Below the pieces are notes generated by a model, which had not been told where the DNA came from, did no database searches, and saw only the letters and a program-made list of their open reading frames with translations. The position numbers were made by a program, and so were the translations under genes. A DNA stretch of 32,000 bases from Alkalilimnicola ehrlichii MLHE-1 (GTDB lineage Bacteria; Pseudomonadota; Gammaproteobacteria; Nitrococcales; Halorhodospiraceae). Below are positions 4,910-28,429 of the stretch, piece after piece; positions within the stretch are counted from its first letter, which is position 1, and every line of letters begins with the position of its first letter. Location of the stretch: positions 690,001-722,000 of the forward strand of contig NC_008340.1 of NCBI RefSeq assembly GCF_000014785.1, read 5' to 3'.

Positions 4910-6049
4910 ATGACGCATCAAGTGAAGGAAATGGTCGAGGGCGTGGCCCGAGACTTCGAGGGGTTTAAGTCCCGCCAGGATCAAGCCCTGTCCGACCTGG
5001 GCGAGCGCGTGAAGCGTGCCGAGACCCTGGCCGCCCGCAAGGTGGGCATGACCGTGGACAGCGGCGCAGGCATGGGGCCGGAGACCAAGGCGGTCCGTGA
5101 GTGGCTGCGTGGTGGCGACTTCGACCGCAAGGCCCTGAGCATCGAGGATGACGGCCAAGGCGTGACCGTGCGCAGCGATTGGGCGGATCAGATTTTCAAG
5201 CGCATTCGGGAATCCAGCCCGGTCCGGCAGGTGGCTAATAACCTGTCCACCAATTCCAACGAATTGGAGGTTCTGGTTGACCGTGGTGAACCGGACTCAG
5301 CGTGGGTGGCTGAAAAGGGCGACCGCGATCCGACTGCCGCTAGTTTCATGTCTCGGCATAAGATTGCGGTGCATGAACATTATGCGTATCCGAGCGTAAC
5401 CCAGCAATTCCTGGAGGATAGCCGGCTCGACCTGGAGCAGTGGTTGCAGGACAAGATCGGAACCCGTTTCGGTCGGCAGGAAGCCGAATCCTTTATCAAG
5501 GGTGACGGCAACGGCAAGCCTCGCGGCATTCTGGATTACGACACCGTGCCGGATGGTGATTTCGAGTGGGGCGCTGATCCTGCCGATTACACCATCGGGG
5601 CGATCTATACCGGTGAATCGGGTGACTTCCCGAGCAACAATCCCGATAACGTGCTCTACGATGTTGTGGACGCGCTCAAGTCGGATTACCTGGGCAATGC
5701 ACGGTTCATGATGAGCCGCGCCACGATGAACAAAATTCGGAAGCTGCGGGATGGTGACGACCGTGCCCTGCTCCAGATGAGCCTGGCGGAAGGTCGGCCC
5801 AACACGCTTCTTGGGTTCCCGGTGGTGATTGCCGAGGATATGCCGGACCCGGCTGCCGATTCCGAGTCGATCCTGTTCGGTGACTTCGGCCAGGCTTACA
5901 CCATCGTTGACCGGATCGGAGTAAGCGTGCTGCGTGATCCCTACTCCCTGCCCGGATGGGTCCGCTGGTATGTGCGCAAGCGGATCGGTGGGGCGCTGAC
6001 CAACCCCGAGGCCGTGAAGGCCGTGGTGTTCGGCGCTGAGCCGAGCTGA
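4910..6049 (+). CDS. Phage major capsid protein, HK97 family (379 aa)
   Basis: The product has a charged, coiled-coil-like N-terminal region of about 100 aa. This is followed by a typical HK97-fold core pattern (FGRQEAESFIKGDGNGKPRGIL, YLGNARFMMSRATMNKIRKL, ILFGDFGQAYTIVDRIGVSVLRDPYS). RBS is GAGGTAACGAGTT-ATG. Confidence 0.85.
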   Translation: MTHQVKEMVEGVARDFEGFKSRQDQALSDLGERVKRAETLAARKVGMTVDSGAGMGPETKAVREWLRGGDFDRKALSIEDDGQGVTVRSDWADQIFKRIRESSPVRQVANNLSTNSNELEVLVDRGEPDSAWVAEKGDRDPTAASFMSRHKIAVHEHYAYPSVTQQFLEDSRLDLEQWLQDKIGTRFGRQEAESFIKGDGNGKPRGILDYDTVPDGDFEWGADPADYTIGAIYTGESGDFPSNNPDNVLYDVVDALKSDYLGNARFMMSRATMNKIRKLRDGDDRALLQMSLAEGRPNTLLGFPVVIAEDMPDPAADSESILFGDFGQAYTIVDRIGVSVLRDPYSLPGWVRWYVRKRIGGALTNPEAVKAVVFGAEPS

Positions 6050-7039: not shown

Positions 7040-7115
7040 TGGTGGAGCCGAGGGGAGTCGAACCCCTGACCTCAGCAGTGCGATTGCTGCGCTCTCCCAA
7101 CTGAGCTACGGCCCC
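7040..7115 (-). tRNA. tRNA-Ala (anticodon CGC), 76 nt with encoded CCA
   Basis: The reverse complement reads GGGGCCGTAGCTCAGTTGGGAGAGCGCAGCAATCGCACTGCTGAGGTCAGGGGTTCGACTCCCCTCGGCTCCACCA. The 7-bp acceptor stem has G3:U70, the alanine identity pair. The D stem is GCTC/GAGC. The anticodon stem CAGCA/TGCTG carries loop AUCGCAC. The T arm is AGGGG-TTCGACT-CCCCT. Confidence 0.93.
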
Positions 7116-7260
7116 GGTGCAGCGCAAATCCTACCACCGCTGGCGTTAAGATAAAAGGGCGCCCATATGGGTGCGGCCGAATCGCGCCAGTAGCGCGGGG
7201 CGCGGCCCGTGCGCCGGTCGTGTTCGGCGTCCTCGTGAGCCTCGGACTGTGGTGCGGGCA

Positions 7261-8394
7261 TCATGGATGCATACGCACCTTTTGAAGTTTGCAGGATCTG
7301 CCGGCGGCGAGCAGCTCGGGGAGTTTGATGTCGGGGTCTTGCTCGCCGGCCTGCACCATGCGCCGGGCGGCGGCCTCCAGTTCGGGGCTGGGCGTGGCCC
7401 AGTCGTGCTCCGGGATGGGTTCGGACCAGGCCTGGATCTCGGGGGGAATGGGTGCGCGGCTCTGGTGGTATTCCCAGGTGGCCAGCCGGAAGGGCAGCTT
7501 CCAGAAGGTGATCAGGTGGTAGAGGTACCAGAAGAAGACGAAGACCCGGCTGGTGAAGCCATCACGAAGGTCTTCGTGGAGTTTCTTGCGGGCGATCTCG
7601 AGGGTGTGGACGCCGTCGTAGGGGAGGTGCTCCCTGGGGTCGATGGGCAAGCCGGAGAAGGTTTTCGTGGGCCGTTCGAGCGTGCCCGGCCCGTGATCCA
7701 TGTAGCGGCGGATGGCCTCCCACAGGCCCAGGGCCTCCTCGGGGAGCGAGGCGGGGAAGAGGGCGGTATAGGACTGTCCGGTTTCCGCGTCCTCGACGGT
7801 GAGGCCGAAGTTGTAGTGGGTCATGGCGCCGTAGGGGGTGGCGCCGCTGCTGGTGGCCATCCAGGCGGTGACGCGCTCGAACGGGGCGACGAGGGTTTGG
7901 CCGGTTTCGGGGTCGAAGCAGGCGACCTCCCGGCGCTGGCGATGGAAGCGCACCGGGGGATGCCGCCGGGCCTGCTTCATGCGGTCGACGAAGCCGTAGA
8001 GGAGGATCAGAAACAACAGGGTGCCGCCGAAAAGGCCGTAGGGGATGGAGACTATGGCGGCATAGAGGGCATTTGCCCAGAATGGTTCGCCATACACGAG
8101 TCCGGCCGCGCCGATAAGCATCGGTGCACCGAGCCCGATAAAGATCACGCCGATGAAGAAGGGCATGCCGATCATGACCTGGTGGGCTTGGGCGGTGTGG
8201 CGGCTGGAGTCCAGATCCAGGTAGGTCTGGTCGATGTGGACGAGGAACTGCTTCGGGTCCATGGGGCGCACCGGGAGCGGTAATGGCAGCGGCGCGAGGA
8301 CCAGCGCCTCGCCGGTGGCGAAGCGGCGCACGTCCCCGGCCCGGGGATGTCCGGAGAGGTCGGGGGCTTCGTTGGTGGGGGCGGGCTTGCTCAT
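7261..8394 (-). CDS. T6SS immunity-like inner-membrane protein, distal paralogue (377 aa)
   Basis: Start ATG overlaps the stop of the upstream paralogue (ATGA at 8391-8394). Two hydrophobic helices (MIGMPFFIGVIFIGLGAPMLIGAAGL and ALYAAIVSIPYGLFGGTLLFLILLYGF) plus a third hydrophobic stretch (RVFVFFWYLYHLITFW). Immunity function is inferred from position downstream of a membrane toxin. Confidence 0.75.
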   Translation of the reverse strand: MSKPAPTNEAPDLSGHPRAGDVRRFATGEALVLAPLPLPLPVRPMDPKQFLVHIDQTYLDLDSSRHTAQAHQVMIGMPFFIGVIFIGLGAPMLIGAAGLVYGEPFWANALYAAIVSIPYGLFGGTLLFLILLYGFVDRMKQARRHPPVRFHRQRREVACFDPETGQTLVAPFERVTAWMATSSGATPYGAMTHYNFGLTVEDAETGQSYTALFPASLPEEALGLWEAIRRYMDHGPGTLERPTKTFSGLPIDPREHLPYDGVHTLEIARKKLHEDLRDGFTSRVFVFFWYLYHLITFWKLPFRLATWEYHQSRAPIPPEIQAWSEPIPEHDWATPSPELEAAARRMVQAGEQDPDIKLPELLAAGRSCKLQKVRMHP

Positions 8395-9566
8395 GGTTTC
8401 CGTGGGGTCCGCTCGTTGTTGCCGTTGCCGTTGCCGTTGCCGCCGTCGTGGTCCGGGTGCCAGTCGGCGATGCCGGCGGCGAGCAGCTCGGGGAGTTTGA
8501 TGTCGGGGGCTTGCTCGCCGGCCTGCACCATGCGCCGGGCGGCGGCCTCCAGTTCGGGGCTGGGCGTGGCCCAGTCGTGCTCCGGGATGGGTTCGGACCA
8601 GGCCTGGATCTCGGGGGGAATGGGCGCGCGGCTCCGGTGGTATTCCCAGGTGGCCAGCCGGAAGGGCAGCTTCCAGAAGGTGATCAGGTGGTAGAGGTAC
8701 CAGAAGAAGACGAAGACCCGGCTGGTGAAGCCATCACGAAGGTCTTCGTGGAGTTTCTTGCGGGCGATCTCGAGGGTGTGGACGCCGTCGTAGGGGAGGT
8801 GCTCCCTGGGGTCGATGGGCAAGCCGGAGAAGGTTTTCGTGGGCCGTTCGAGCGTGCCCGGCCCGTGATCCATGTAGCGGCGGATGGCCTCCCACAGGCC
8901 CAGGGCCTCCTCGGGGAGCGAGGCGGGGAAGAGGGCGGTATAGGACTGTCCGGTTTCCGCGTCCTCGACGGTGAGGCCGAAGTTGTAGTGGGTCATGGCG
9001 CCGTAGGGGGTGGCGCCGCTGCTGGTGGCCATCCAGGCGGTGACGCGCTCGAACGGGGCGACGAGGGTCTGGCCGGTGTCGGGGTCGAAGCAGGCGACCT
9101 CCCGGCGCTGGCGATGGAAGCGCACCGGCGGATGCCGCCGGGCCTGCTTCATGCGGTGGAAAAAGCCGTGGAGGGCAATGAGAAACAACAGGGTGCCGCC
9201 GAAAAGGCCGTAGGGGATGGAGACAATGGCGGCATGCAGGGCGCTTGCCCAAAAGGTGTGGTCGGTCCCGAACGCGGTCGTGCCAATAAGCAACGGAAAA
9301 CCGAGCCCGATAAAGATCACGCCGATGAAGAAGGGCACGCCGATCATGACCTGGTGGGCTTGGGCGGTGTGGCGGCTGGAGTCCAGATCCAGGTAGGTCT
9401 GGTCGATGTGGACGAGGAACTGCTTCGGGTCCATGGGGCGCACCGGGAGCGGTAATGGCAGCGGCGCGAGGACCAGCGCCTCGCCGGTGGCGAAGCGGCG
9501 CACGTCCCCGGCCCGGGGGTGTCCGGAGAGGTCGGGGGCTTCGTTGGTGGGGGCGGGCTTGCTCAT
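8391..9566 (-). CDS. T6SS immunity-like inner-membrane protein, proximal paralogue (391 aa)
   Basis: The true start is MSKPAPTNEA at 9566, overlapping the toxin stop (ATGA at 9563-9566). The track's 586-aa version is an upstream extension over the toxin 3' end. Topology matches 7261..8394, but the tail is different (…IADWHPDHDGGNGNGNGNNERTPRKP). Confidence 0.75.
   Translation of the reverse strand: MSKPAPTNEAPDLSGHPRAGDVRRFATGEALVLAPLPLPLPVRPMDPKQFLVHIDQTYLDLDSSRHTAQAHQVMIGVPFFIGVIFIGLGFPLLIGTTAFGTDHTFWASALHAAIVSIPYGLFGGTLLFLIALHGFFHRMKQARRHPPVRFHRQRREVACFDPDTGQTLVAPFERVTAWMATSSGATPYGAMTHYNFGLTVEDAETGQSYTALFPASLPEEALGLWEAIRRYMDHGPGTLERPTKTFSGLPIDPREHLPYDGVHTLEIARKKLHEDLRDGFTSRVFVFFWYLYHLITFWKLPFRLATWEYHRSRAPIPPEIQAWSEPIPEHDWATPSPELEAAARRMVQAGEQAPDIKLPELLAAGIADWHPDHDGGNGNGNGNNERTPRKP
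8418..8441 (-). repeat. Hexanucleotide repeat (GTTGCC x4 on +, GGCAAC x4 on -) encoding (Gly-Asn)4 in the proximal paralogue tail
   Basis: Read directly as GTTGCCGTTGCCGTTGCCGTTGCC. It is in frame with 8391..9566. Confidence 0.85.
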
Positions 9567-12500
9567 GGTTTCTTCCCGGGTTGCAAGGGCACGGTCGGTG
9601 GGCTGCCGGTGGTCCACGCCCGCCCGGACAAGGGTTGGATGGGGCGTTCGGCCGAGCCGTCCTCTCGTCCGCCGGACAGGGCCTGGAAAAAGGTGGGCAC
9701 CGGGTCGGGGTTGAGGGTGTCCAGGTGGAAGTGGACCTCCCGCTCCAGGCCGGGGACCAACGCGGAGGGGTAGGTCAGGCGCAGGGAGAGGCCGGTCTGG
9801 GCGTTGAGTTCTTCCGGAAACAGCGGCAGGCGCAGGGTCGTGGGCGCGTCGGGCGATGCTTCGAGCTGCTCGGCGAGCGACTGGCTCCAGGGGGCCCACC
9901 ACTGGTCGGGGGCCTTGCGCAGGGCGGCCAGCCGCGCGGCACCGGCGGCGAGATCCTCCGGGGCCAGGTCCGGGATCACCAGTTCCAGTTCCGCCTGCCC
10001 GTCCACCCGGCGCAGGGTGAGCCGGGGTTCGACGAGGGCATTCACCCAGCGGCGCCGGTGGGTCTCCAGATCCAGCCCCGCATCGGCCACCCCCCAGGCG
10101 CTCTGCTCCAGCCAGGTGGCCAGCGCGTCGCGCTGGTTGCGGCGGTACCACCAGAGGCCGCCGAGATAGACGGGGGTGAAGAGCAGGCCGAGGAGGTTGA
10201 CGCGCACGAAGATGGCGACGAAGCGGGCGCTGCGGGTGGCCCAGGCGGCGGCGCTGAGTCCGCCCTCCTGGTAGGCGGAGACCACTAACGTGGTATTCCG
10301 CCAGAAGCCCCAGCCCTGGGTGGCGGTCAGCCCGCCGGACCCGGCCAGGGTGAGGGTGGCGGCGGCCAGGGCCTGGCCATCGCCCCGTTGCAGGGCGTCG
10401 CCCCAGCGGTGGAGGCTGCGGCCGGTCTCCGAGAGCGAAGCAAGAAAGCCCAGGCCGTACGCCCCGGTGCCCAGGTGCCCGGTGAGCCAGCCGAGGCGGG
10501 CGGCCACCGCGCCCCGGGCCATCTGGCTGCGCACCCGGGGTAGCTGCACCGCGAGCAGGCTGATGCCGATGCCCTGGGCGGCGGCGAAGGTGGGGGCCGC
10601 GGCATTGACTAAACCGCCAAGTACTGCCAACAGGTCGCGCAGGCCCCTTTGCTCTTTGTCGCGAAACTCGACGTACGCACTCCCCAGATTGCGCAACTGC
10701 AGCACCGCGATCACCACGGAAAGCCCGTCGCTGCGGAGCACGCGGCCGGCGTCGGCGCGGGTTTGCAGGGGGCGGCCGGCCCGGGCGTCGTCGGCCATGC
10801 GGCGGATCTCCCGGTGGGTGTCGGCGTCCAGCCCCCGCAACTGCAGGCCCACGCGGTTGTCCGTCCCCTTCAGGGGGTTGATGGCGCCGGCCAGGCGCCG
10901 TTCCACGTAAAGCAACTGACCGCGAATGCGCTCGCGGTATTGCTGCATATCCCGCCGGGTTTCCCGGTAGACCCTGGCGTCGATGACGCCCCGGCGGCGG
11001 CGTACCCCTTCGTCCTTCAGGCGGCGGTTCGCGCCGCGTAGCGCCTCGCGGAGGGCGAGGGCCTGGTCCACGTCGGCGTTGAAGCGCCGCACGTGGCGTT
11101 CCGTGGGCAGCTCGACGCTGGCGCCGTGTTCGGCGAACCCCCGCACCATGTCCAGCCAGGCGGCGCCGGGCACGCGGCGCAAGATGTCGTCGAGGTCGAG
11201 GTTGCCGCCGGCCTGGAATCGTTGCAGCGTTTCGTCCAGGGCCTGGGCGAAACGCAGTTCGCGGGCCGGCCGGAAGGTGGCACGGCGCAGCTCATCCAGC
11301 CCCATCGCCGTCTGCCCGAGCTCCCGGGCGGCGGGCAGGGCGTAGGTCTCCCGGATGGCCTGAAGCCGGAGCGCCAGTTGATGGAAGCTTTCGACGGTCT
11401 CGGGCGCCTGCAGGGTGCCGGCGGTTACGTAGGTCACCTGCGCGAGTTCTTCCAGCTCCCGGGCGGCCCGGCGCTGGTCGCCCGGGTGGAGCGTGTGGAA
11501 CAGCGGTTCGTTCCACTGGGGGTGGGCGTCGAGCCAGTCGGCGATGGACTCGGCGGCCTCGTCGGTGCGGCAGATGTCCCGCAGGCAGGCATACTCGGTG
11601 TACAGGGCCTGCTGGAGCTGGTCGTCGAGTGCGGGGTCGAAGTACCAGGCCGCCTCGTGGAAGTGGTTGGTCTCGACCAGGCGGACCCGGTCCTCGGTGA
11701 TGCGATCGAGCAGCGCGTGCCAGCGCCGCAGGTGCGCCCGGTGGGTGTCGAGGAAGTCGCCCATGGCGTCCCGCTCGACAAGCTCGAGCAGCCCCCTGGA
11801 GCCGAGCCCGGCACCCTGCAGCCGCGCCCGGAGGGCGTCGCGCTGCTCGTCGATCAGGTGCTGGTGGCGTTCCCGGAGCTCGGGGCCCAGGGTGTCCATC
11901 ATCTGCTGGCGGGCCTGGGCCACGCGGCGGTGGGCGGGCTCGGCGAACGGGTTGATGGCTTCGAGCAAGCCCTCGCCGCTGCCGAAGGCCCGCCGGGTCG
12001 ATGCCAGGAACCCGCCGGATTCGTGTTCCAGGCTGTTGAGGTAGTCGAGGATGGCGCGCTGCTGTGCTTCGCTGGTCTCCTCGCGCAACGCCCGGAAGCG
12101 GGGGTCATCCACAAAGCCCTCCTCGTCGAGCAGGAAGAGGGATTCGATGAACCCGCCGGCCACGTACCGGGTCTCGTGCTCTCGCGCCCAGCTATCCAGC
12201 CACCCGACCACGTGGTCCTGGTAATCGGCGAGCTCCTGGAGCAGGCCCAGGTCGTCGCGCAGTATCAGGCCGTACAGGCGCTCGTCCGGGACACCCTCCG
12301 GCGCCCAGTGCCCGAGCAGGTCGTCCAGCGTGGTGCGTTCGAAGGGTGCGGGGGGCGGCCCGGCGGGAAAGGCCGCCCCGTCTGTGTCCGAACCGCCTCC
12401 CCCGCCCGATTCGGCCGCCTTTGCCTCGGGTGGCGGCGGTGGCGGGGCCGTCCAGGGGTAGGGGTTTCGTTCCGCCTCCATGGGGCTCTCCGGCGTGCCG

Positions 12501-13240
12501 CTCGCGGGTGGCTCGTGCAGCTCCGCCACGGCCGGGCGGATCCGGTCGCTGGCGAGCAGCGGCTCCACGCTGGTCGGGTCGTCTCCGTCGAAGCCGGCAG
12601 CCGCCCGCGCCAGATCCACGGACTGCATGCGGCGGTTGCGCTCGCCCGGGTTCTCCAGCATGCGGTTGCATCGGGCGGCGCTCCACTGGGCCGTGGCATA
12701 GGCGGCCTGGAGACGAGCGGCGGAGCCGAAGGTGAGATGGGGCGCGCCCTGCGCCTTTTCGCGCCGGTCTTCGGTCACGCCCTCGACCCCATCGAGCAGC
12801 CGGGTCAGGGTCATCGCCTGCAGCCGGAATTCGTACAGCCGGAGTGGCTGCTCGCCGGGAGCGCGCGGTTGCTCGATCACGTAGAGGTACCCCTCCCGCG
12901 CAAGGCGCACGCCGATCGGCCGCGTGCCAAGCGGCGGATAGGGCGCCCGGATCCGGGCGCCGGCGATCGCCTCGGGTTCCACCAGGGCGTAGCGCAAGGG
13001 CAGCAGGGTGATCTGCTCGACCGCCACCTCGCACGGTGCGGGGTGGCAGACGTCGCCCGGTGCCCGGCTGTCCGAAAGGCGCTCGCGGTTCTCCGGAAGC
13101 CGAACCTGCTGCCCGGGGTAAATGCAGTCAGGGTGTTCGATGTCGGGGTTCAGGGTCATCAGGGTTGCCGGGGGCACGCCATGCTGCCGGGCAATGCCCC
13201 AGAGGGTGTCGCCGTCGCGTACGGTGTGTATGGCACTCAT
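9563..13240 (-). CDS. T6SS effector: N-terminal LysM + VasX / BTH_I2691-family-like N-region + C-terminal multi-helix membrane-insertion region (1225 aa)
   Basis: Start MSAIHTVRDGDTLWGIARQHGVPPATLMTLNP...GQQVRLP is a LysM domain, and its ATG overlaps the DUF4123 stop (ATGA at 13237-13240). C-x4-C then ITLLPLRYALV...REGYLYVIE matches the VasX N-terminal pattern. Residues about 838-1032 carry five hydrophobic, Gly/Ala-rich helices. The 212-aa upstream extension in the track overlaps the adaptor gene and is rejected. Confidence 0.8.
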   Translation of the reverse strand: MSAIHTVRDGDTLWGIARQHGVPPATLMTLNPDIEHPDCIYPGQQVRLPENRERLSDSRAPGDVCHPAPCEVAVEQITLLPLRYALVEPEAIAGARIRAPYPPLGTRPIGVRLAREGYLYVIEQPRAPGEQPLRLYEFRLQAMTLTRLLDGVEGVTEDRREKAQGAPHLTFGSAARLQAAYATAQWSAARCNRMLENPGERNRRMQSVDLARAAAGFDGDDPTSVEPLLASDRIRPAVAELHEPPASGTPESPMEAERNPYPWTAPPPPPPEAKAAESGGGGGSDTDGAAFPAGPPPAPFERTTLDDLLGHWAPEGVPDERLYGLILRDDLGLLQELADYQDHVVGWLDSWAREHETRYVAGGFIESLFLLDEEGFVDDPRFRALREETSEAQQRAILDYLNSLEHESGGFLASTRRAFGSGEGLLEAINPFAEPAHRRVAQARQQMMDTLGPELRERHQHLIDEQRDALRARLQGAGLGSRGLLELVERDAMGDFLDTHRAHLRRWHALLDRITEDRVRLVETNHFHEAAWYFDPALDDQLQQALYTEYACLRDICRTDEAAESIADWLDAHPQWNEPLFHTLHPGDQRRAARELEELAQVTYVTAGTLQAPETVESFHQLALRLQAIRETYALPAARELGQTAMGLDELRRATFRPARELRFAQALDETLQRFQAGGNLDLDDILRRVPGAAWLDMVRGFAEHGASVELPTERHVRRFNADVDQALALREALRGANRRLKDEGVRRRRGVIDARVYRETRRDMQQYRERIRGQLLYVERRLAGAINPLKGTDNRVGLQLRGLDADTHREIRRMADDARAGRPLQTRADAGRVLRSDGLSVVIAVLQLRNLGSAYVEFRDKEQRGLRDLLAVLGGLVNAAAPTFAAAQGIGISLLAVQLPRVRSQMARGAVAARLGWLTGHLGTGAYGLGFLASLSETGRSLHRWGDALQRGDGQALAAATLTLAGSGGLTATQGWGFWRNTTLVVSAYQEGGLSAAAWATRSARFVAIFVRVNLLGLLFTPVYLGGLWWYRRNQRDALATWLEQSAWGVADAGLDLETHRRRWVNALVEPRLTLRRVDGQAELELVIPDLAPEDLAAGAARLAALRKAPDQWWAPWSQSLAEQLEASPDAPTTLRLPLFPEELNAQTGLSLRLTYPSALVPGLEREVHFHLDTLNPDPVPTFFQALSGGREDGSAERPIQPLSGRAWTTGSPPTVPLQPGKKP

Positions 13241-14028
13241 CGGGCGCCCCCCAGAACCAGTCGCTCGAGCGTACGGATTCGCTTCCCGGACGGTTGCCCG
13301 ACGTCCAGGAGTACGGCGAGACAGTCCTTTTCTTCCAGCCGGGCTTCGTGGGCCGCCACGAGCGCGACGAAACGGGCTATCTCGGGCTCGTCGTGAAAGC
13401 GGTAGCGCTGCGCGCGCTCGATCAGCCGCGCGCAGCGGTGCTGGCCGCCCGGCTGGCCGGCCAGACCCGAAGCCCGGGCCACAGCCACCCGGAACAGCCA
13501 ACAGGCCTGGGCCCGTAGGTGAGTCATGTGGGCCTCGCTTAGCTGGAACCAGCCTTCGTCGCGCGGGCCGCGTGCCTGGCCCTGGGATGGCGCGCGGATG
13601 GTGATGTCGGTGCCGGGCAGGTGCCAGGCGGTGATCGGCCCACTGAAGGCACGGCGCTCTTCGTAGTCGAGCATGCAGAGCAATGGGACGAGCTGCCCGG
13701 GCGAATAGAAGCGACAGTAGGCGCCCTGCCCGGAAGGCAGTCGCACGCTGATCAGGCTGCGCAGGTGGTCGGCCACCACGGCCGGATCGGCCGGGGATTC
13801 GAGCAGGATGCCGTGATCCCGCCAGGTTTCCGGGGTGGCCAGGAGCGCGCTGCCGGGCGAGGGTTTGACCAGGCAAGGGCTCACGGTGATCGCCTCCTGG
13901 TGCCGGGTGCCAGCAAAGAGTCGCTCGAGTTCGGGGGCGTCATCGTGCTGGTAGGCGAGCCTGGGAGCGTCCGTGGTGGCACCGTCGAGCAGGATCAGAC
14001 CGTTTTCCGGGGTGCGGGTGATAGCCAT
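13237..14028 (-). CDS. DUF4123-family T6SS adaptor/chaperone (263 aa)
   Basis: LILLDGATTDAPRL near the N-terminus and AYCRFYSPGQLVPLLCMLDYEERRAFSGPITAW match the DUF4123 signature (LLDGA ... RFYDPRVL ... FGPI.W). It lies between vgrG and the effector, as vasW does in Vibrio cholerae. Start chosen at MAITRT (14028), 14 nt after the vgrG stop; the track start at 14124 would overlap vgrG by about 80 nt. Confidence 0.8.
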   Translation of the reverse strand: MAITRTPENGLILLDGATTDAPRLAYQHDDAPELERLFAGTRHQEAITVSPCLVKPSPGSALLATPETWRDHGILLESPADPAVVADHLRSLISVRLPSGQGAYCRFYSPGQLVPLLCMLDYEERRAFSGPITAWHLPGTDITIRAPSQGQARGPRDEGWFQLSEAHMTHLRAQACWLFRVAVARASGLAGQPGGQHRCARLIERAQRYRFHDEPEIARFVALVAAHEARLEEKDCLAVLLDVGQPSGKRIRTLERLVLGGAR

Positions 14029-14042
14029 ATCGGCGAGCTCAT

Positions 14043-16226
14043 TCAGGCGTGATCCGGGTCGTCCTGACCCGTCGGGCACGGGCAATCGGCGAGCGGGCAG
14101 TCGCCGTTCGGGCCCCGGTGGCATTGCACCACCAAGGCGGCATCTTGCCCGGCCGCCTGACGCAGCTGGTCGGGTGCCAGCGTTCGTGCGTCGAGCAAGG
14201 CCTCCGGTCCAGCACCGGCCTCGCCGTATTGAACCTCCGGGACGGCGTGGCCCGGCAACAACGGCACCGCTGCCTGCTGGGCGCTCCCGGAGCCTGGTCG
14301 GCCCCCGGAGTTCATGCGGATGCCGGGGCCACTGAGGGTGATGCCGGAGGGGTCGAGCTTGATGAAACTGCCGCCCGCCTGGAGGGTGATCTCGGCACCG
14401 GCGTCGAGAACGACCTTGTTGCCCGCGCTGTAATGGACCTCGCGGCCCGTTTCAACGAGTTGAGAGGTGCCGAAGCGCTGATGCAGCGTGCCCTCCACGG
14501 TGAGATGCTGATCACCGGCAGTGCGCTCGCGCCGCTCGCCCTGCACGGTGAGGTGCTCGTCGCCGTGGATCTCCGCGAGCCGGTCGCCGTGGACGCCCAG
14601 GTGGCTGTGCCGGCCGATGGTCTCGGAGCGGTCGTTGCGGGTGTGCAGGTCGAGATCGCGCTGGGCGTGCAGGTGGATGCGCTCGGCGTCGCGGGCGTCC
14701 TCGAAGTGCAGTTCGTTGTAGCCCTCGCCGCCGTGGCTGCGACTGCGCAGCACGCTGCGGGTCTTGTGCTCGGGCAGCGGATAGGGCGGGGTGTTGTGGC
14801 CCTCGTAGACCCGGCCGGTGATCACCGGCTGATCCGGGTCGCCGGCCAGGAAGTCGACGATCACCGCATGGCCCACCCGGGGCAGGAACAGCCCGCCGTA
14901 GCCGGGCCCGGCCCAGGGCTGGGCGACGCGCAGCCAGGCGCTGGCGTGCTCGTCGTCGGCGGCGTAGCGGTCCCAGGGGAAACGGACCTTGACCCGGCCG
15001 TGCTCATCGCAGTGGATCGCCTCCCCCTCGGGGCCCACCACCCGGGCGATCTGCGGGCCTTCCATCCGCGGGCCGGCGTCCGGGTCGTGGGGCGGGCGCC
15101 AGTCGGTGTCGGCGGGCACAAGGGTGAGCCGGTTGTTCAGCCGGGCCACGCCTGCGGCTGCATCGCCCTTGCCCTCGGCGGCCAGCAGCACGGCGTCCTC
15201 TTCCAGCGCGGCGGGCTGGCGGGCGGTGTGGCGGGCGCCGACCACCTGCCAGTCGCGGCGCCGTTCGCCGGCGTCGTGGCCATCGAGGGTGAAGCGCACG
15301 CCGGGGCGCAGCTCGGCAATATCGCTCTCGGCCTCGGCGGTGTGGGCGTCGGCGCGCAACTGGCCGAGCCGGACCCGGGTGAAGGCCCGGCCGCTGGTCT
15401 CGGTCTTAAACCGGCCGGGGTGGTCGTAGTGCTCGTAGGGGGTGGCCCCCGACTCGGCGCCATCATGCCCGGCTGCCCCGTCCACCGCCTGCGCGTGGAT
15501 CAGCCGCCGCCGGGGGGTGCGGAAATGGCGATCCTCCAGGGTGGCGCGCTGCGCGCGCACCCGGTGGGCCTCGCGCAGGGTGTGCACATGACGGCCCTCG
15601 GCTACGCCGCCGGCGCGGGGGCGGTAGACCCATTCGCCCGCCTGCCCCAACCCCCGATGGGTATCGGTGAACACCGGGCGGTGGCCGCCCTCGGGGGTGT
15701 CGTCGAACTCGTGGAAGTAGACGATGCCCAACTCGGCGGCAAGCCGCTGGACAAAGGCCAGGTCGCTCTCCCGGTACTGCACCAGGTACTCGCGGGGCTC
15801 GGGGCGGTGGCGGACGGCGAAGGCGGCGTCGGTGATGCCATGTTCCGAAAGCAGGGTGTGGAGGACATCCAGCGGGCAGGCGTGCTGGAAGATGCGGGCG
15901 TTGCGGCGCAGGGCAAGGCGCCAGAGGGCGGGGCGGACGACCAGTTGGTAGGCGGTGCGCCGGGCGCCGGTGCGGCCGCGCTGGAACTCGGTGACCACGC
16001 CGTGGACCCGGCGGGTGACGCGGCCGGCCTGATGGATGGCCAGTGCCAGGCCCTGCTCAAGCCAGTCGTCGGGGGCGAGATCGGGCGAGGGGTGGACCAG
16101 GTCCAGGGTCAGGGTGAAGGGCCGGGAGAGGTGCTCATCCAGGGTGAACCCGGTGACCCGGGGCAGGTCGGCCTCCGCCACGCCGGGGCGCGAGAGGGCG
16201 AGGTACAGTCCGTTGTCCGTTTGCAT
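14043..16226 (-). CDS. vgrG: Type VI secretion spike protein VgrG (727 aa) with a short Cys-rich C-terminal tail
   Basis: The N-terminus (RVTGFTLDEHLSRPFTLTLDL) is typical of the gp27-like domain. The gp5-like OB and beta-helix region follows (PRMEGPQIARVVGPEGEAIHCDEHGRVKVRFPWDR; WLRVAQPWAGPGYGGLFLPRVGHAVIVDFLAGDPDQPVITGRVYEG). Repetitive H-x-x-V motifs and ITLSGPGIRMN occur near the end. Confidence 0.9.
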   Translation of the reverse strand: MQTDNGLYLALSRPGVAEADLPRVTGFTLDEHLSRPFTLTLDLVHPSPDLAPDDWLEQGLALAIHQAGRVTRRVHGVVTEFQRGRTGARRTAYQLVVRPALWRLALRRNARIFQHACPLDVLHTLLSEHGITDAAFAVRHRPEPREYLVQYRESDLAFVQRLAAELGIVYFHEFDDTPEGGHRPVFTDTHRGLGQAGEWVYRPRAGGVAEGRHVHTLREAHRVRAQRATLEDRHFRTPRRRLIHAQAVDGAAGHDGAESGATPYEHYDHPGRFKTETSGRAFTRVRLGQLRADAHTAEAESDIAELRPGVRFTLDGHDAGERRRDWQVVGARHTARQPAALEEDAVLLAAEGKGDAAAGVARLNNRLTLVPADTDWRPPHDPDAGPRMEGPQIARVVGPEGEAIHCDEHGRVKVRFPWDRYAADDEHASAWLRVAQPWAGPGYGGLFLPRVGHAVIVDFLAGDPDQPVITGRVYEGHNTPPYPLPEHKTRSVLRSRSHGGEGYNELHFEDARDAERIHLHAQRDLDLHTRNDRSETIGRHSHLGVHGDRLAEIHGDEHLTVQGERRERTAGDQHLTVEGTLHQRFGTSQLVETGREVHYSAGNKVVLDAGAEITLQAGGSFIKLDPSGITLSGPGIRMNSGGRPGSGSAQQAAVPLLPGHAVPEVQYGEAGAGPEALLDARTLAPDQLRQAAGQDAALVVQCHRGPNGDCPLADCPCPTGQDDPDHA

Positions 16227-16379: not shown

Positions 16380-17950
16380 TCAGCGCCCCATGGCCTGAAT
16401 GCCGCGCCGCTCCAGCAGGGAGCCGTCCAGACGGTAAAGCTCGACCAGGGCCTGGCGGTAGCCGATTTCAGCGGCCTGTCGGTCCACCTGGGCCTGTAGC
16501 AGGTCGCGTTGCGCCTGCGAGAGGGCGAAAGCGGTGGCCTGGCCCACCTCAAAGCGGGCGCTCTCGGCCCGCAGGCGCTCCTCCTGGGCGGCAACGGTGG
16601 CCATGGTGGCTGCGATCTGCGCCTGGCTGCGGTCGACCTCCAGCCAGGCGGCCTGCACGTCCATCTGCACTAGGCGGGTCAGGTTGTCGATGCCGAGCAG
16701 GGCCTGTTCCCGTTGTAACCCGGCCTGGCGGTGTTCGGCCTGACCGGCCCGGCGGCCCAGGGGGTGTTCCACCCGAAGGCCTGCCACGGCGTCATAGCTG
16801 CGGCCGTCCAGTTCCTGCACCGCTGAACCGAAGGAGTCGGCAAAGCCGCTCTTGCCCAGGGTGACGAAAAGATCCAGCCGCGGCAGCAGGCCGTTGCGGG
16901 TGCGCACCAGCTCCAGCTCATTGCGCTCCAGAAGCAGCCGGGCCTCGCGCAGTTCGGCCCGGTGCTCCAGGGCGAGCAGCAGGTGGTTGGCCACCGGCTC
17001 CGGCTCGGTGTCCCCGGGCAGCGCGGGGGCGGTCTCCGGGGTCAGCTCCGGGGCCTCGCCCGGGGCGTAGTCGGTCCCGGTCAGTTGCAGTAGCTCCAGT
17101 CGCGCCAGGTCGCGCCGGTTGCGGGCGTCGATCAATTCCTGCCGGCGGAGCGCGGCCTCCGCCTCCAGCGGGGCCAGTTCGGTCTCCGACAGGTCCCCCA
17201 GCCGGATCCGTTCCCGTGTGCGCTCGATCTGTTCCCCGGCCAGCGCCAGCGAGGCTTCGAACAACCCGATCTCGCGTTCCGCCTGCACCAAGTCCCAGTA
17301 GGTGCTCTCCACGTCGGCGATCAGGGCCTCGGTAAAGCCACGCAGTTCGTACGCCGAGCGCAGGGTGTCGAGCTCGGCCTGCTGGACGCGCACGAGGTTC
17401 ACGTCGCGGCCGCGGCCCTGCAGCAGGGGCTGGTTGAGGGTGAGGTTGAGCCGGGAGCGGTGCAGGGCGGTGCCGTCCCGGGCATCTGGGGCGTCGCTCT
17501 CGCTTAGCCGCCGGTCCTGGGTGACGCCCAGTTCCACCTCGGTGCCGGGGGCGAACTGCTGGCGGACGCCGGCGCGCACGTTTTCGCGCTCGCTCTCCAC
17601 GGCAAAGCGGTCGCCGCGGCGGTCATCCAGGCGGTCCTCCCGGTCGCGGCGCACGCTCAGCTCGGCGAAGAGCTCCGGGTCGAAGACCGCCCGCTCGATC
17701 TCCTGGAAGGTGGCGGCGATCTCCGGCTCCAGGCGCTCGGAGCGCAGTGCGGGGTTGGATTCCAGGGCGCGCAGGACCGCCTCCTCCAGGGTGAGGGGCT
17801 CGGCCTGTACGCCGCTGGCGAGCAGCGCCGCCAGGACGGCCAGAAGGCCGGTGCGCAACGGCCCCCACCGGCGCCGGGGCCGGTTCACGGGGGCGCCCGG
17901 GCGGGCCGGTGCAACGAGCGGGCCGGGGTGGCCCGGGTGGCGATCCTGGG

Positions 17951-17954
<4 letters not shown>
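16380..17954 (-). CDS. TolC-family outer-membrane efflux factor (524 aa)
   Basis: A signal-like LLAVLAALLASGVQA is followed by PLTLEEAVLRALESNPAL, and two repeated coiled-coil halves are typical of OEP/TolC proteins. The start overlaps the RND stop (ATGA at 17951-17954). Confidence 0.85.
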
Positions 17955-21030
<3,076 letters not shown>

Positions 21031-21034
<4 letters not shown>

Positions 21035-22260
21035 CCTTCCTGCTCCTCGTCCTGGCGGGCCAGCGCATCGGTCAGCCGTTCCGGCCGCAGCGGGCTGCCG
21101 TCCCGGATCAGGTGCTGGCCGAGGGTGACCACATTGCCCTGCAACGCCGGGCTGAGGATCTGTACCCGGTCGCCGTCCCGCACCCCGGTGGTGACGGTGT
21201 GGTAACGGGCCCGCGGCGGCTGGTCGTCGCCCACATCCTCATCCACCAGGAAGATACCCACCTCATCGCCACGTCGCACCAAGGCGTCGCGGGGCACCCA
21301 GAGGGCGTCCCGGGTCTCGCCGACGGTGATGTGGAGACGGGCGAAGAGTCCGGGCTGCAGCCGGCCCTCCGGGTTGGGGACGGTCAGCTCCAGCCGGGCC
21401 TGGCGGCTGCCGGGACTGAAGCGCGGTGCCAGCCGGTGGACGGTGGCGGGGAAGTCCTCGCCGGGATGGGTGTCCACCCGGAGACGGGCGGCCTGGCCGG
21501 GGTTCAGGTGGGCGTAGTCCCGTTCGGTGACGAAGCCCACGGCGCGCAGGGTGCGGGTGTCCATCAGCGAGACCACCGGGTCGCCGGCGTTCAGCGCGGC
21601 GCCCTCGTCCCGATAGCGCTCGCCCACCACCCGGGTCTCGCCGCCGCCCTCCCAGTCGGCGCGGATCTCGGTCCAGGACAGGCGTACCCGGGCGGCGGCC
21701 AGGGCGGCCTCCCGCTGGGCAATCTGGGCCCGGGCCAGTTGCTCGCGGCTCTGCTCGGCGGCCACCCGCGCCTCGGCGGCCTCCAGCTCCGCCTGGGAGG
21801 CCACCTGACGCTCGCGCAGGGCGCGGGTACGGTCCAGCTCCTTGCGCGCGGAGGCCAGCGCGGCGCGGGTCTCGGCGAGCTGGGCCCGGGCCACGTCACG
21901 GGCGGCCAGGGCCTCGGCCACGGCCTGTTCCTGCTCCTCGCTGTCCAGACGGGCGATGAGTTCGCCGTGCTCCACCGTATCGCCGATGTCCACTCGCAAT
22001 TGGCGCAGCCGGCCGCCGGTGCGCGCCGCCAGGTCGAACTGATTAGCCGCCTCCAGGCTGCCGGTGAAACGGCGCACATCCTCCAGCGGGCCGCGGGTCA
22101 GCGGGGCGGTCTCGACTGCCACCGGTTGCGCCGCACGCTCGCCGGTCAGACCGGGGCCGGCGCCGTCGGGGCCGGTGAGGTGCAGGGCGTAGAGCCCGAG
22201 GGCGGTGATAAGCAACGCGGGCAGCCACCAGCGTAGGGCCTTTATCAGGGCGGATTTCAT
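21031..22260 (-). CDS. RND efflux periplasmic adaptor (membrane fusion protein, 409 aa)
   Basis: An N-terminal anchor WWLPALLITALGLYAL is followed by lipoyl/hairpin segments (coiled-coil AEALAARDVARAQLAETRAAL...) and a beta-barrel C-terminal half. It is the first gene of the three-gene operon. Confidence 0.85.
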
Positions 22261-22510: not shown

Positions 22511-23956
22511 GTGCACTGGAGAACCATCCTGCGAATCACCAGCCTGCTGGTGGTCATCTTTAGTTTCAACTTTATCCCGCCACTGGGGGTGTCGCTATTC
22601 TATGGCGATGGCCAGTGGGGGACCTTCGGGTTGAGCTGGCTCATTGTCGCCGTGCTCGGGGTGCTGTTCTGGTTGCCGGTGCGCGCCGACCGCAAGGACC
22701 TGATGGTCCGTGATGGCTTCCTGGTCGTCGCCCTCTTCTGGAGTGTGCTGGGGCTGGTGGGGTCGCTGCCCTTCATGTTCGGCCTGGGCATGACGCCCAC
22801 CGATGCGGTGTTCGAGTCCATCTCCGGGTTCACCACCACCGGGGCCACGGTCATCGTCGGTCTGGATGACCTGCCGCGCTCCATCCTCTATTACCGCCAA
22901 CAGCTCCAGTGGCTGGGCGGGATGGGTGTGGTGGTGCTGGCCGTGGCCATTCTGCCGATGCTCGGCATCGGGGGGATGCAGCTCTACCGCGCCGAGGTTT
23001 CGCGGGTGACCGCCGACGAGAAGCTCACCCCGCGGCTGATGCATACCGCCCGCGCCCTCTGGGCCATCTACCTGACGCTCACCGTGGCCTGCGCGCTGGC
23101 CTACTGGCTGGCGGGCATGACGCCTTTCGATGCCATCGGGCACGCGTACTCAACGGTGGCGACGGCGGGCTATTCCACCCACGATGCCAGCATCGGCTAC
23201 TTCAACAGCGTGACCATCGAACTGATTGCGGTGGTTTTCATGCTGCTGGGCGGGATGAACTTCGCGCTGCACTTCCTGGTCTGGCGCTCGCGCGATCCCC
23301 GGGTCTATCTGCGCACCCCTGAGGCGCGCTTCTTCCTGGGGCTGTTTCTGGCGGCTACGGTGGTGATCGCCAGTGCGCTGGTCTTCATGTCCACCTACGA
23401 GTCGGTATGGGACGCGGTGCGCTATGCCCTGTTCCAGACGGCCTCAGTGCTCACCACCAGCGGGTTCTCCACGGCGGTGTTCGCGGAATGGCCGTTGTAT
23501 ATCCCCCTGGTGCTCGCCAGCCTGTCCTTCATCGGCGGTTGTGCCGGCTCCACCGCCGGGGGGATGAAGGTGATTCGCATCATGCTGCTGTTTAAGCAGG
23601 GCGCGCGTGAGGTGAACGCCACCATCCATCCGCATGGGGTCTATCGGGTGAAACTGGGAGACCGGGCGGTGCCCGAGCAGGTGGTGCAGGCGGTGTGGGG
23701 CTTCTATACGGTCTATATCCTGGCGGCGCTGGTGCTCACCGGGTTGAATATGGCCATGGGCCTGGATATGGAAAGCGCCTTCGGCGCCACCATCGCCTCC
23801 CTCAACCTACTGGGTCCGGGGCTTGGCGAGGTGGCGACCACCTTCGCCCTCCAGCCCGACCCGATCAAATGGATGGCCAGCTTCGCCATGCTGCTCGGGC
23901 GGCTGGAGGTCTTCACCCTGCTGATTCTGTTCACATTCGCCTTCTGGCGAAACTGA
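22511..23956 (+). CDS. trkH: Trk-type potassium uptake protein TrkH (481 aa)
   Basis: GTG start gives MHWRTILRITSLLVVIFS..., closely parallel to the enterobacterial TrkH N-terminus. Repeated M1-P-M2 units carry GFTTTGATV, TVATAGYST and LTTSGFST selectivity-filter-like motifs. Confidence 0.9.
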   Translation: MHWRTILRITSLLVVIFSFNFIPPLGVSLFYGDGQWGTFGLSWLIVAVLGVLFWLPVRADRKDLMVRDGFLVVALFWSVLGLVGSLPFMFGLGMTPTDAVFESISGFTTTGATVIVGLDDLPRSILYYRQQLQWLGGMGVVVLAVAILPMLGIGGMQLYRAEVSRVTADEKLTPRLMHTARALWAIYLTLTVACALAYWLAGMTPFDAIGHAYSTVATAGYSTHDASIGYFNSVTIELIAVVFMLLGGMNFALHFLVWRSRDPRVYLRTPEARFFLGLFLAATVVIASALVFMSTYESVWDAVRYALFQTASVLTTSGFSTAVFAEWPLYIPLVLASLSFIGGCAGSTAGGMKVIRIMLLFKQGAREVNATIHPHGVYRVKLGDRAVPEQVVQAVWGFYTVYILAALVLTGLNMAMGLDMESAFGATIASLNLLGPGLGEVATTFALQPDPIKWMASFAMLLGRLEVFTLLILFTFAFWRN

Positions 23957-23991
23957 ACGCGCTTCCGGGAAAGGCGCGGTGCCGGGGCCGT

Positions 23992-24127
23992 CGTTGTGCT
24001 GGGGGCGGAGGGGGCGTGATTACGGTTCAGGGGTTTAAGCGGCAGGGATGCCGCTTAAAAGCCCCCATGGACGGGTTCACGGCGTCCCCTGAACCGTAAT
24101 CACGCCCCCTCCGCCCCCAGCACAACG
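23992..24127. repeat. 136-bp composite palindromic element: perfect 42-bp inverted arms enclosing a 10-bp-stem inner hairpin
   Basis: Arm CGTTGTGCTGGGGGCGGAGGGGGCGTGATTACGGTTCAGGGG (23992-24033) is the exact reverse complement of 24086-24127. The inner hairpin is TTTAAGCGGC-AGGGAT-GCCGCTTAAA (24034-24059). It lies in the trkH-glgC intergenic region. Confidence 0.85.
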
Positions 24128-24231
24128 GCGACGTGACACGGGGGCGCGCGTTGGCAGGGGTGACGGCGGCCGGTATCCTTACGGGTGCCCTGGGCCGGCG
24201 GGGCGAAACCCCTATCAGCAAGAGGTCGCTC

Positions 24232-25503: not shown

Positions 25504-25590
25504 AGGCCGGCCCTTGCCAGGGATAGCTTAACGAGCCGCCGCCAACCCGCTACCCTGTGAATTCATCCACACGAGACGGGCAGGGCTTTG

Positions 25591-28380: not shown

Positions 28381-28429
28381 CCGCCCGGGCTTGGGTGAGG
28401 TGCCGGCCGCGGGCAAGCGGGCGCGGTGC

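Follow-up and report, generated by a model that had tools for sequence, protein, structure and literature searches.

How immunity proteins stop the pore-forming toxins of the VasX family, and what sets their specificity, is a question on which a stretch of 32,000 nucleotides from Alkalilimnicola ehrlichii MLHE-1 bears (NCBI RefSeq assembly GCF_000014785.1, contig NC_008340.1, positions 690,001 to 722,000 of the forward strand; hereafter the ‘window’, the whole stretch analysed, whose own numbering is used throughout). Two adjacent genes at 7261–9566, here named imm1 and imm2, constitute a minimal natural experiment beside one toxin: their products differ at 18 residues of one patch, apart from three scattered replacements and unrelated tails. 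Why, then, should two otherwise near-identical copies be so different in one place? We find that imm1 and imm2 form a two-gene ‘poly-immunity’ array of DUF6708-related, predicted inner-membrane proteins behind a VgrG/DUF4123-dependent LysM-VasX effector, and that their family has two cassettes, one at a membrane hairpin and one at about residues 240–320, which occur as discrete classes, longer-lived than species and re-assorted among the members of arrays. The explanation that we consider probable on the whole is a poly-immunity array with a scaffold homogenised by gene conversion and old cassettes that set toxin specificity.

Two immunity genes behind a LysM-VasX effector

The genes in question, together with those immediately upstream, are the following.

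7261–8394, minus strand: imm1, the distal immunity paralogue, 377 residues, ABI56000.1; Pfam DUF6708 16.7 bits
8391–9566, minus strand: imm2, the proximal immunity paralogue, 391 residues, ABI56001.1; 743 bits with the hidden Markov model (HMM) of the family
9563–13240, minus strand: LysM plus VasX/BTH_I2691-family pore-forming type VI secretion system (T6SS) effector, 1225 residues from MSAIHTV
13237–14124, minus strand: DUF4123 (Tap-type) T6SS adaptor gene; Pfam DUF4123 6.9e-26; overlaps the ATG of the effector (13240) with its stop codon
14043–16226, minus strand: vgrG spike gene, 727 residues; Pfam Phage_GPD 8e-79, Gp5_trimer_C, Phage_base_V

The identification of imm1 and imm2 as tandem immunity genes, already put forward in an earlier note on this DNA, is well founded by context: (i) VgrG, the DUF4123 adaptor and the effector are encoded upstream, (ii) the adaptor/effector, effector/imm2 and imm2/imm1 junctions are all ATGA overlaps, so that the four genes are translationally coupled, and (iii) an open reading frame (ORF) of at least 850 residues is immediately followed by a full-length relative at 57 other loci. 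BTH_I2691_fam was the only NCBIfam match in all eight upstream ORFs that were tested. In the window effector itself, VasX_N passes its Pfam cut-off (86.8 bits; cut-off 27) and is preceded by an N-terminal, peptidoglycan-binding LysM domain (49.3 bits; residues 5–49, 13094–13240 on the minus strand); BTH_I2691_fam (NF041559), the sole full-length match, scores 117.8 bits (E-value 5.5e-34) and thus stays under its 150-bit cut-off. The effector would be a divergent representative of the VasX/BTH_I2691 superfamily; it has hydrophobic helices around residues 878–889 and 1013–1020. A LysM domain ahead of VasX_N is also seen in the effector of Alkalispirillum mobile (L001, 1374–5069), and no LysM-type match came up when seven further effectors were scanned with NCBIfam.

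ABI56000.1 and ABI56001.1 are exact NCBI matches, named hypothetical or transmembrane proteins of A. ehrlichii MLHE-1. An assembly artefact as the source of the duplication was rejected, because both exact proteins occur in two independent MLHE-1 assemblies. Likewise rejected as genes were the plus-strand ORFs 7171–8283 and 8283–9455, shadows typical of DNA with 68% guanine plus cytosine; homologues, family matches and synteny are all on the minus strand.

Hydropathy yields two strong helices, centred on residues 77–93 and 118–130 (19-residue values 2.1–2.3), which we refer to as the first and second transmembrane helices, TM1 and TM2. Eight Lys or Arg residues fall within the 24 residues after TM2 and none in the turn, and the positive-inside rule therefore places the N-terminus and everything after TM2 in the cytoplasm and the turn (about 100–107) in the periplasm, where it is predicted to be the only clearly periplasmic part of either protein. 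The predicted location of both proteins is the inner membrane, and the predicted order of parts is a cytoplasmic N-terminal segment, the transmembrane hairpin, a strongly basic and invariant PVRFHRQRRE, a conserved beta-rich domain, a weakly hydrophobic third helix and conserved C-terminal helices. An AlphaFold2 model computed from a 75-sequence alignment (mean predicted local distance difference test score, pLDDT, 72.6; predicted template modelling score, pTM, 0.68) has strands at 22–61, a helical hairpin at 64–100 and 105–142, a beta domain at 148–215, a helix at 218–234, a poorly modelled stretch at 243–302 and confident C-terminal helices. A Foldseek search of the PDB with this model returned nothing significant (best E-value 0.13), and its Kir-channel and PTB-domain rows (E-values of at least 0.13) were disregarded.

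The repeat that comprises most of both genes is made up as follows.

7299–8400, no strand assigned: repeat copy 1 (1102 bp), imm1 codons 1–365 plus 6 bp upstream
8471–9572, no strand assigned: repeat copy 2 (1102 bp), imm2 codons 1–365 plus the last two sense codons of the effector
7984–8127, minus strand: divergent cassette of imm1 (codons 90–137), holding 33 of the 41 differences
9156–9299, minus strand: matching divergent cassette of imm2 (codons 90–137), with the loop AFGTDHTFW
8391–8470, minus strand: C-terminal tail of imm2, IADWHPDHDGGNGNGNGNNERTPRKP, of ancestral type and matching three A. mobile tails
7261–7298, minus strand: C-terminal tail of imm1, RSCKLQKVRMHP, unrelated to the family tail and marking the end of the array

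Shifted by 1172 bp, the two copies align without a gap over 1102 bases with 41 differences, 33 of which lie inside the 142 bp of 7986–8127, while the remaining 960 bp hold only eight (7337, 7453, 7463, 7897, 7906, 7957, 8166 and 8347). When the 41 differences were placed at random 100,000 times, no 142-bp interval received more than 19, and the observed 33 was not reached once. At the protein level, 18 replacements fall in residues 77–137 and three elsewhere (163, 311 and 353), the densest block being the nine consecutive codons 96–104 (imm1 8083–8109), the core of the patch, at the predicted periplasmic turn of the hairpin. The earlier note had described an alignment free of indels, a short patch in which divergence is concentrated, about 18 substitutions within it against three outside, and unrelated C-terminal tails; all of this is borne out, the count of replacements being exact, the peptides quoted there correct and the tails unrelated beyond residue 365. 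Its further statement that the patch spans both transmembrane helices holds only in part, since the patch does lie on the hairpin but occupies it unevenly. It covers residues 90–114 (from the outer, C-terminal third of TM1 through the loop to the first residues of TM2) and takes in 129–137, the cytoplasmic (inner) end of TM2, whereas imm1 and imm2 are identical at 74–89 (the first two thirds of TM1) and at 115–128 (the TM2 core, VSIPYGLFGGTLLF). In the turn the alternatives are polar, YGEP in imm1 versus TDHT in imm2. The tail of imm2 can be aligned with those of the Alkalispirillum copies (..DW.P...G.G.NPKP) and is hence regarded as the ancestral type.

Age and re-assortment of the cassettes

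By the Nei-Gojobori method, synonymous (dS) and nonsynonymous (dN) divergence amount to 0.36 and 0.21 in the patch (codons 86–137; dN/dS 0.59), and to 0.018 and 0.006 in the remaining 313 shared codons, the flanks (dN/dS 0.31). A 20-fold excess of silent change is not what amino-acid selection after a recent duplication would leave behind, and implies that the history of the patch is longer than that of its flanks; judging from the silent sites, the patch is old or imported rather than freshly mutated. A diversity-generating retroelement was rejected as an unlikely source, because every type of substitution occurs between the two genes, adenines are not favoured, and the annotated genes of the window include no visible reverse transcriptase.

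The orthologous locus of A. mobile holds three tandem copies of 385 residues each. Copies A and B differ in the hairpin patch (residues 86–117); a second patch, at 244–290, sets copy C apart from both. The nucleotide distance of the flanks is 1–3% within a genome and 15–22% between Alkalilimnicola and Alkalispirillum, while that of the hairpin patch, patch 1, reaches 26–33% within a genome; in patch 2, copy C is separated from Alkalilimnicola by 0.22, like the flanks (0.15–0.22), and copies A and B are distant from both (0.36–0.41). A contig from a soda-lake metagenome (L067) combines an Alkalispirillum-like scaffold with a turn of the imm2 type (AAFGVDHRTFW versus TAFGTDHTFW), and the helix flanks of the imm2 cassette are common to copy B of A. 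mobile. Compared as a whole, the patch gives an ambiguous picture (11 residues for imm2 and copy B, 12 for imm1 and copy B, 13 for imm1 and imm2), and the pairing was resolved only once loop and helix flanks were treated as separate modules and L067 was included. The turn types GLxYGEPFW and AFGxDH(R)TFW then occur with the helix-flank types in all four combinations (six sequences, three lineages), so that the parts of the cassette are older than the three lineages and have recombined.

For the family as a whole, the family HMM was run over a set of one genome per species plus metagenomes (143 further loci), with patch 1 defined as HMM columns 70–140 and patch 2 as columns 240–320. Among 116 loci that have any full-length copy, 31 hold two to five and the other 85 a single one, some of these 85 being cut by contig ends; the figure of 31 arrays is an underestimate, because many matches are located at the end of a contig or on one of 1–2 kb. 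Copy number thus ranges from one to five, and the patch alleles are mosaic across the arrays: over the 77 within-array pairs, the median identity is 0.92 for the scaffold, 0.37 for patch 1 and 0.31 for patch 2, the scaffold is the most conserved segment in 62 pairs, and pairs differ by patch 1 only, by patch 2 only, or by both. In the window pair only the hairpin, of the two family cassettes, differs.

Further detail comes from a Pseudomonas clade of 25 genes from ten genomes. Here five discrete classes of patch 2 and several of patch 1 can be told apart, which are shared across species and variously combined, and genome-specific scaffold substitutions are common to every copy of an array. The nucleotide distance in patch 2 is 0.57 between different classes of the same genome and 0.245 between different genomes within the same class, the latter being equal to the between-genome distance of the scaffold (0.249). 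Within a patch-2 class, dN/dS is 0.07 at a dS of 1.33 (scaffold 1.30), and scaffold dS is 0.25–0.33 within a genome as against 1.0–1.5 between genomes. Judged from these substitution rates, the patch-2 classes are under purifying selection and are shared between Pseudomonas species. Because old, maintained cassettes sit in scaffolds homogenised genome by genome, concerted evolution by gene conversion appears well supported, on the strength of such distance contrasts rather than of conversion tracts seen as such. The combination of homogenised flanks and a divergent cassette that the earlier note had suggested for the window likewise draws support from the dS contrast, the shared sub-modules and the family-wide mosaic. 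Repeated exchange of cassettes between strains could contribute as well.

The alternative that survives best, although we deem it unlikely, holds that the tandem duplication is recent and that one copy then acquired a divergent cassette by homologous recombination with another strain's DNA, with no long-term conversion. A flank dS of 0.018 would suit a young duplication, the sub-modules of the patch match alleles of other lineages, and the crossing of Pseudomonas species by patch classes can also be explained by horizontal exchange of cassettes. However, arrays are found in Alkalilimnicola, in Alkalispirillum, in the soda-lake relative and at 31 loci overall, and therefore look ancestral; moreover, the recurrence of genome-specific scaffold substitutions in all copies, together with the intermediate scaffold dS of 0.25–0.33, fits repeated homogenisation.

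Some individual loci deserve mention. In draft genomes and metagenomes, family members are often found on contigs of 0.5–9 kb (several of less than 2 kb) or at contig ends (L007, L011, L013, L018, L034, L062, L065 and L067), Vreelandella boliviensis having one match on a 1.3-kb contig and Zooshikella ganghwensis matches on four separate short contigs, which suggests that draft assemblies break at tandem copies so nearly identical and that array sizes are under-counted in public genomes. In Halopseudomonas pertucinogena (L039, 4572–10975), three strong members alternate with three ORFs of about 320–335 residues that match the family HMM weakly (28–37 bits, mid-block only), and the repeat unit seems to be a two-gene module with a distant paralogue. 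In Pseudomonas flexibilis, copy 4 (L005, 9977–11077) shares, along most of the protein, only about 30% identity with three close paralogues, which are themselves 83–85% identical and mosaic, but is 70–100% identical to two of them at HMM columns of about 320–350; apparently, conversion tracts can join very distant family members. Two other A. ehrlichii strains (L002, 4502–10867; L003, 5489–11729) have the VasX-type effector in three or four ORFs, followed by a first immunity gene that is split across frames and then by an intact DUF6708 protein of 288 residues without the N-terminal segment and the first transmembrane helix. This looks like a locus decaying while retaining one immunity gene. 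Finally, in copy 1 of the five copies of Pseudomonas sp. MPB23 (L044, 7179–8165) the conserved C-terminal block is replaced by the tail PPNNGPSAPQNWKPPSPNVK..., and as this tail looks out of frame, the proximal copy is probably frameshifted, though adjacent to the effector.

What the cassettes may recognise

In the mechanism that we propose, recombination between the two copies (gene conversion) would hold their scaffolds near-identical, and the cassette, some 50 codons that encode the hairpin's tip and inner end, would be an old, separately evolving allele that conversion has left unerased. The toxin would reach the periplasm and insert its helices into the inner membrane, at whose periplasmic face the cassettes, as putative specificity determinants, would meet them; one copy might then neutralise the cell's own effector and the other the variant effector of a competitor. 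As far as sequence can tell, a role of the patch as determinant of toxin specificity is plausible, and the best reading of the arrays would be that each member neutralises a different class of toxin, one of them being the cell's own. More tentatively, DUF6708 immunity may be modular, that is, composed of a conversion-uniform scaffold and two independently re-assorting cassettes that match classes of VasX toxin, with the arrays as combinatorial repertoires. If this is true, the repertoire would let a cell survive the pore-formers of many competitors, and the natural chimeras would map the toxin–immunity interface. A conserved anchor combined with variable specificity elements could also amount to a ‘dual recognition’ design.

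The hydrophobic helices of the hairpin are present in 80–92% of 166 family members, and the third hydrophobic helix in patch 2 has transmembrane-like hydropathy in 41–63% of them, being borderline (1.29) in the window proteins. Since patch 1 contains the hairpin and patch 2 this third helix, the variable parts of the family would be membrane-associated and the conserved ones soluble domains. Acting from the periplasm, toxins of the BTH_I2691/VasX type depolarise the inner membrane, and immunity proteins residing in that membrane neutralise them (PMC13133200; bioRxiv 10.1101/2025.04.30.651342; 10.64898/2026.08.24.746647). Among the latter, Tki5 of Pseudomonas putida (about 35 kDa) co-purifies from the membrane with the BTH_I2691-family toxin Tke5 (PMC13133200).

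The following points weigh against our interpretation of the pair as DUF6708 proteins with conversion-homogenised scaffolds and specificity-setting cassettes. (i) The Pfam match of imm1 to DUF6708 (PF20455; 16.7 bits, E-value 0.0066, residues 127–243) falls short of the gathering cut-off of 27 bits, and the Pfam scan of imm2 gave no DUF6708 match; homology to DUF6708 is nevertheless supported transitively, because a relative that is PF20455-annotated and named a DUF6708 protein by NCBI (P0003) is 46% identical over 70% of imm1, and 29 of 34 aligned relatives match DUF6708 at an E-value of 0.01 or lower (best 5.8e-8). (ii) The whole-patch alleles of Alkalilimnicola and Alkalispirillum pair uncleanly across species, and at this locus an old duplication with conversion and a recent duplication with import of a foreign cassette are inseparable. 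(iii) In a partial-Mantel analysis of covariation over 41 related loci, with scaffold divergence controlled and the effector divided into 27 windows, patch-1 distance best matches effector residues 926–955 (r 0.19, p 0.007) and 855–885 (r 0.17, p 0.017), both in the hydrophobic region, at a family-wise p of 0.10 over the 27 windows, which is suggestive but not significant; patch 2 exhibits no covariation with the effector across these loci. (iv) The effectors of the Pseudomonas arrays L014 and L028 are 85% identical, yet their proximal immunity genes belong to different patch classes, so that gene position is no guide to the cognate copy. (v) In an AlphaFold3 model of Ptx2–Pti2, contact is made by the immunity beta-sheet and the scaffold helices of the toxin, and not by transmembrane helices (bioRxiv 10.1101/2025.04.30.651342). 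Published models disagree here, transmembrane contact having been proposed for Tki5–Tke5 and soluble beta-sheet contact for Pti2–Ptx2; the contact modelled for Pti2 lies on a beta-sheet, whereas the beta domain is the most conserved part of the window family.

As for the toxins themselves, the effectors of Alkalilimnicola and Alkalispirillum have about 30 locally variable residues, around 854–884, between highly conserved blocks. In six Pseudomonas loci, whose effectors were missed by phmmer with the window effector and were found by position and confirmed with NCBIfam, no discrete cassettes were detected in the effectors, divergence being spread along the protein, and effector similarity is no predictor of the proximal immunity allele.

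It might also be supposed that the variable regions are merely loosely constrained membrane segments at which conversion was stalled by drift, conferring no specificity, with the copies redundant (dosage) or one of them a relic. Both variable regions do overlap hydrophobic helices, AlphaFold2 models patch 2 poorly, and some arrays hold frameshifted or truncated copies (copy 1 of L044; L002 and L003). We nonetheless regard this as quite improbable, considering that the within-class dN/dS of 0.07 in patch 2, over a dS of 1.3, indicates strong constraint, that the classes are discrete with no continuum, that the same helices are partly invariant (74–89 and 115–128), that the densest changes are located in the polar turn (YGEP versus TDHT), off the lipid-facing stretch, and that both window genes are intact with a flank dN/dS of 0.31. 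With 85 of the 116 loci single-copy (some of them cut by contig ends), one gene suffices in most relatives, and copy number varies from one to five with classes freely re-assorted. It is hence very improbable that the paralogues act as a hetero-oligomer, both being required against a single toxin and the hairpins forming the paralogue–paralogue interface, even though translational coupling would favour balanced production and multi-copy arrays are common. The least credible alternative, a recent duplication with a young hairpin altered by positive selection or local hypermutation, could accommodate the placement of 18 of the 21 replacements in 61 residues, some in consecutive codons with two or three base changes, but is contradicted by the dS contrast (patch 20-fold above flanks), a patch dN/dS that remains below 1 (0.59), the missing adenine-specific pattern, the lack of a reverse transcriptase among the annotated window genes and the presence of loop and flank modules in other lineages.

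The poly-immunity array with homogenised scaffold and specificity cassettes which we favour for imm1 and imm2 can be compared with several known systems. In the vgrG3 operon of Stenotrophomonas rhizophila CFBP13503, Tse3 (MIX-III plus BTH_I2691) has the DUF6708 protein Tsi3a as its annotated cognate immunity, and Tsi3a is followed by 12 homologous genes in a 14-kb ‘poly-immunity cluster’ (PMC13340143). Both loci show one gene order, namely vgrG, a DUF4123 adaptor, a BTH_I2691-type effector and tandem DUF6708-type immunity genes; in the window, however, there are just two of the latter, and a LysM domain is found at the N-terminus of the effector. The passages of the account that were covered give the array, and in them no scaffold–cassette mosaic, concerted evolution or allele classes are mentioned (PMC13340143). 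The rapidly evolving orphan immunity proteins of Bacteroidales rAID systems are, in the portion of the work considered, soluble SUKH proteins on a mobile recombinase-associated element, whereas those of the window are membrane proteins fixed behind an effector, and that portion gives no conserved-scaffold mosaic (bioRxiv 10.1101/2025.05.03.651265). VasX/TsiV2 of Vibrio cholerae, Tke5/Tki5, Ptx2/Pti2 and TpeX/TpiX of Pseudomonas aeruginosa resemble the window, by description, in having the immunity gene just downstream of the pore-former; TsiV2, Tki5, Pti2 and TpiX are described as single genes, whereas the window has a pair.

Immunity proteins against the pore-forming colicins (A, E1, Ia and N) are small integral proteins of the inner membrane, which block a toxin arriving from the periplasm by helix–helix contacts, and their specificity resides in a few membrane or loop residues. 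The likeness to the window proteins is one of mode of action only: the colicin immunity proteins are not known to have a large cytoplasmic beta domain, and Pfam and NCBIfam scans matched no colicin-immunity family (Cai, Cei or Cia type). The orphan immunity genes of V. cholerae are, as far as is known, divergent over their whole length, in contrast to the window copies, whose scaffold is near-identical while their cassettes differ, implying ongoing exchange between copies. In the T6SS auxiliary clusters of that species, according to the part of the source drawn upon, immunity genes of one family stand in a row behind one effector, and such orphan arrays have been read as a record of, or a protection against, other effector alleles (PMC5361080).

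Tandem DUF6708 immunity genes behind BTH_I2691 effectors, orphan immunity arrays and fast evolution at immunity interfaces are thus already known. A limited full-text search of the literature turned up no description of the two-cassette mosaic, of allele classes shared between species or of homogenisation within arrays in this family, and a search for T6SS immunity genes that undergo gene conversion or evolve in concert returned nothing relevant. The present findings suggest that tandem immunity arrays of this family are maintained repertoires rather than the debris of duplication, and the family survey, in which array members differ only in two segments made up of old alleles under selection, points to the residues to be exchanged in swaps.

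Genomic surroundings

The vgrG island that carries the array is an orphan module, as no T6SS core genes are present in the window. A transfer RNA gene, tRNA-Ala(CGC), lies at 7040–7115 on the minus strand, 145 bp downstream of imm1, and positions 1 to about 7000 (plus strand) are occupied by an island resembling a phage satellite, which carries a DUF3987 primase/helicase-like gene (37–1800), an HK97-type capsid gene (4910–6049) and several small ORFs without a family. This island looks as if it had integrated at the tRNA-Ala gene; it did not truncate imm1, given that the unusual imm1 tail stops before the tRNA gene. One side of the vgrG island is bordered by an efflux operon of the resistance-nodulation-division type (OEP, AcrB-type and HlyD-type genes; 16380–22260, minus strand), beyond which, at 22511–30223, TrkH, a GlmU-like transferase, a P-type cation ATPase and a Na+/H+ exchanger are encoded.

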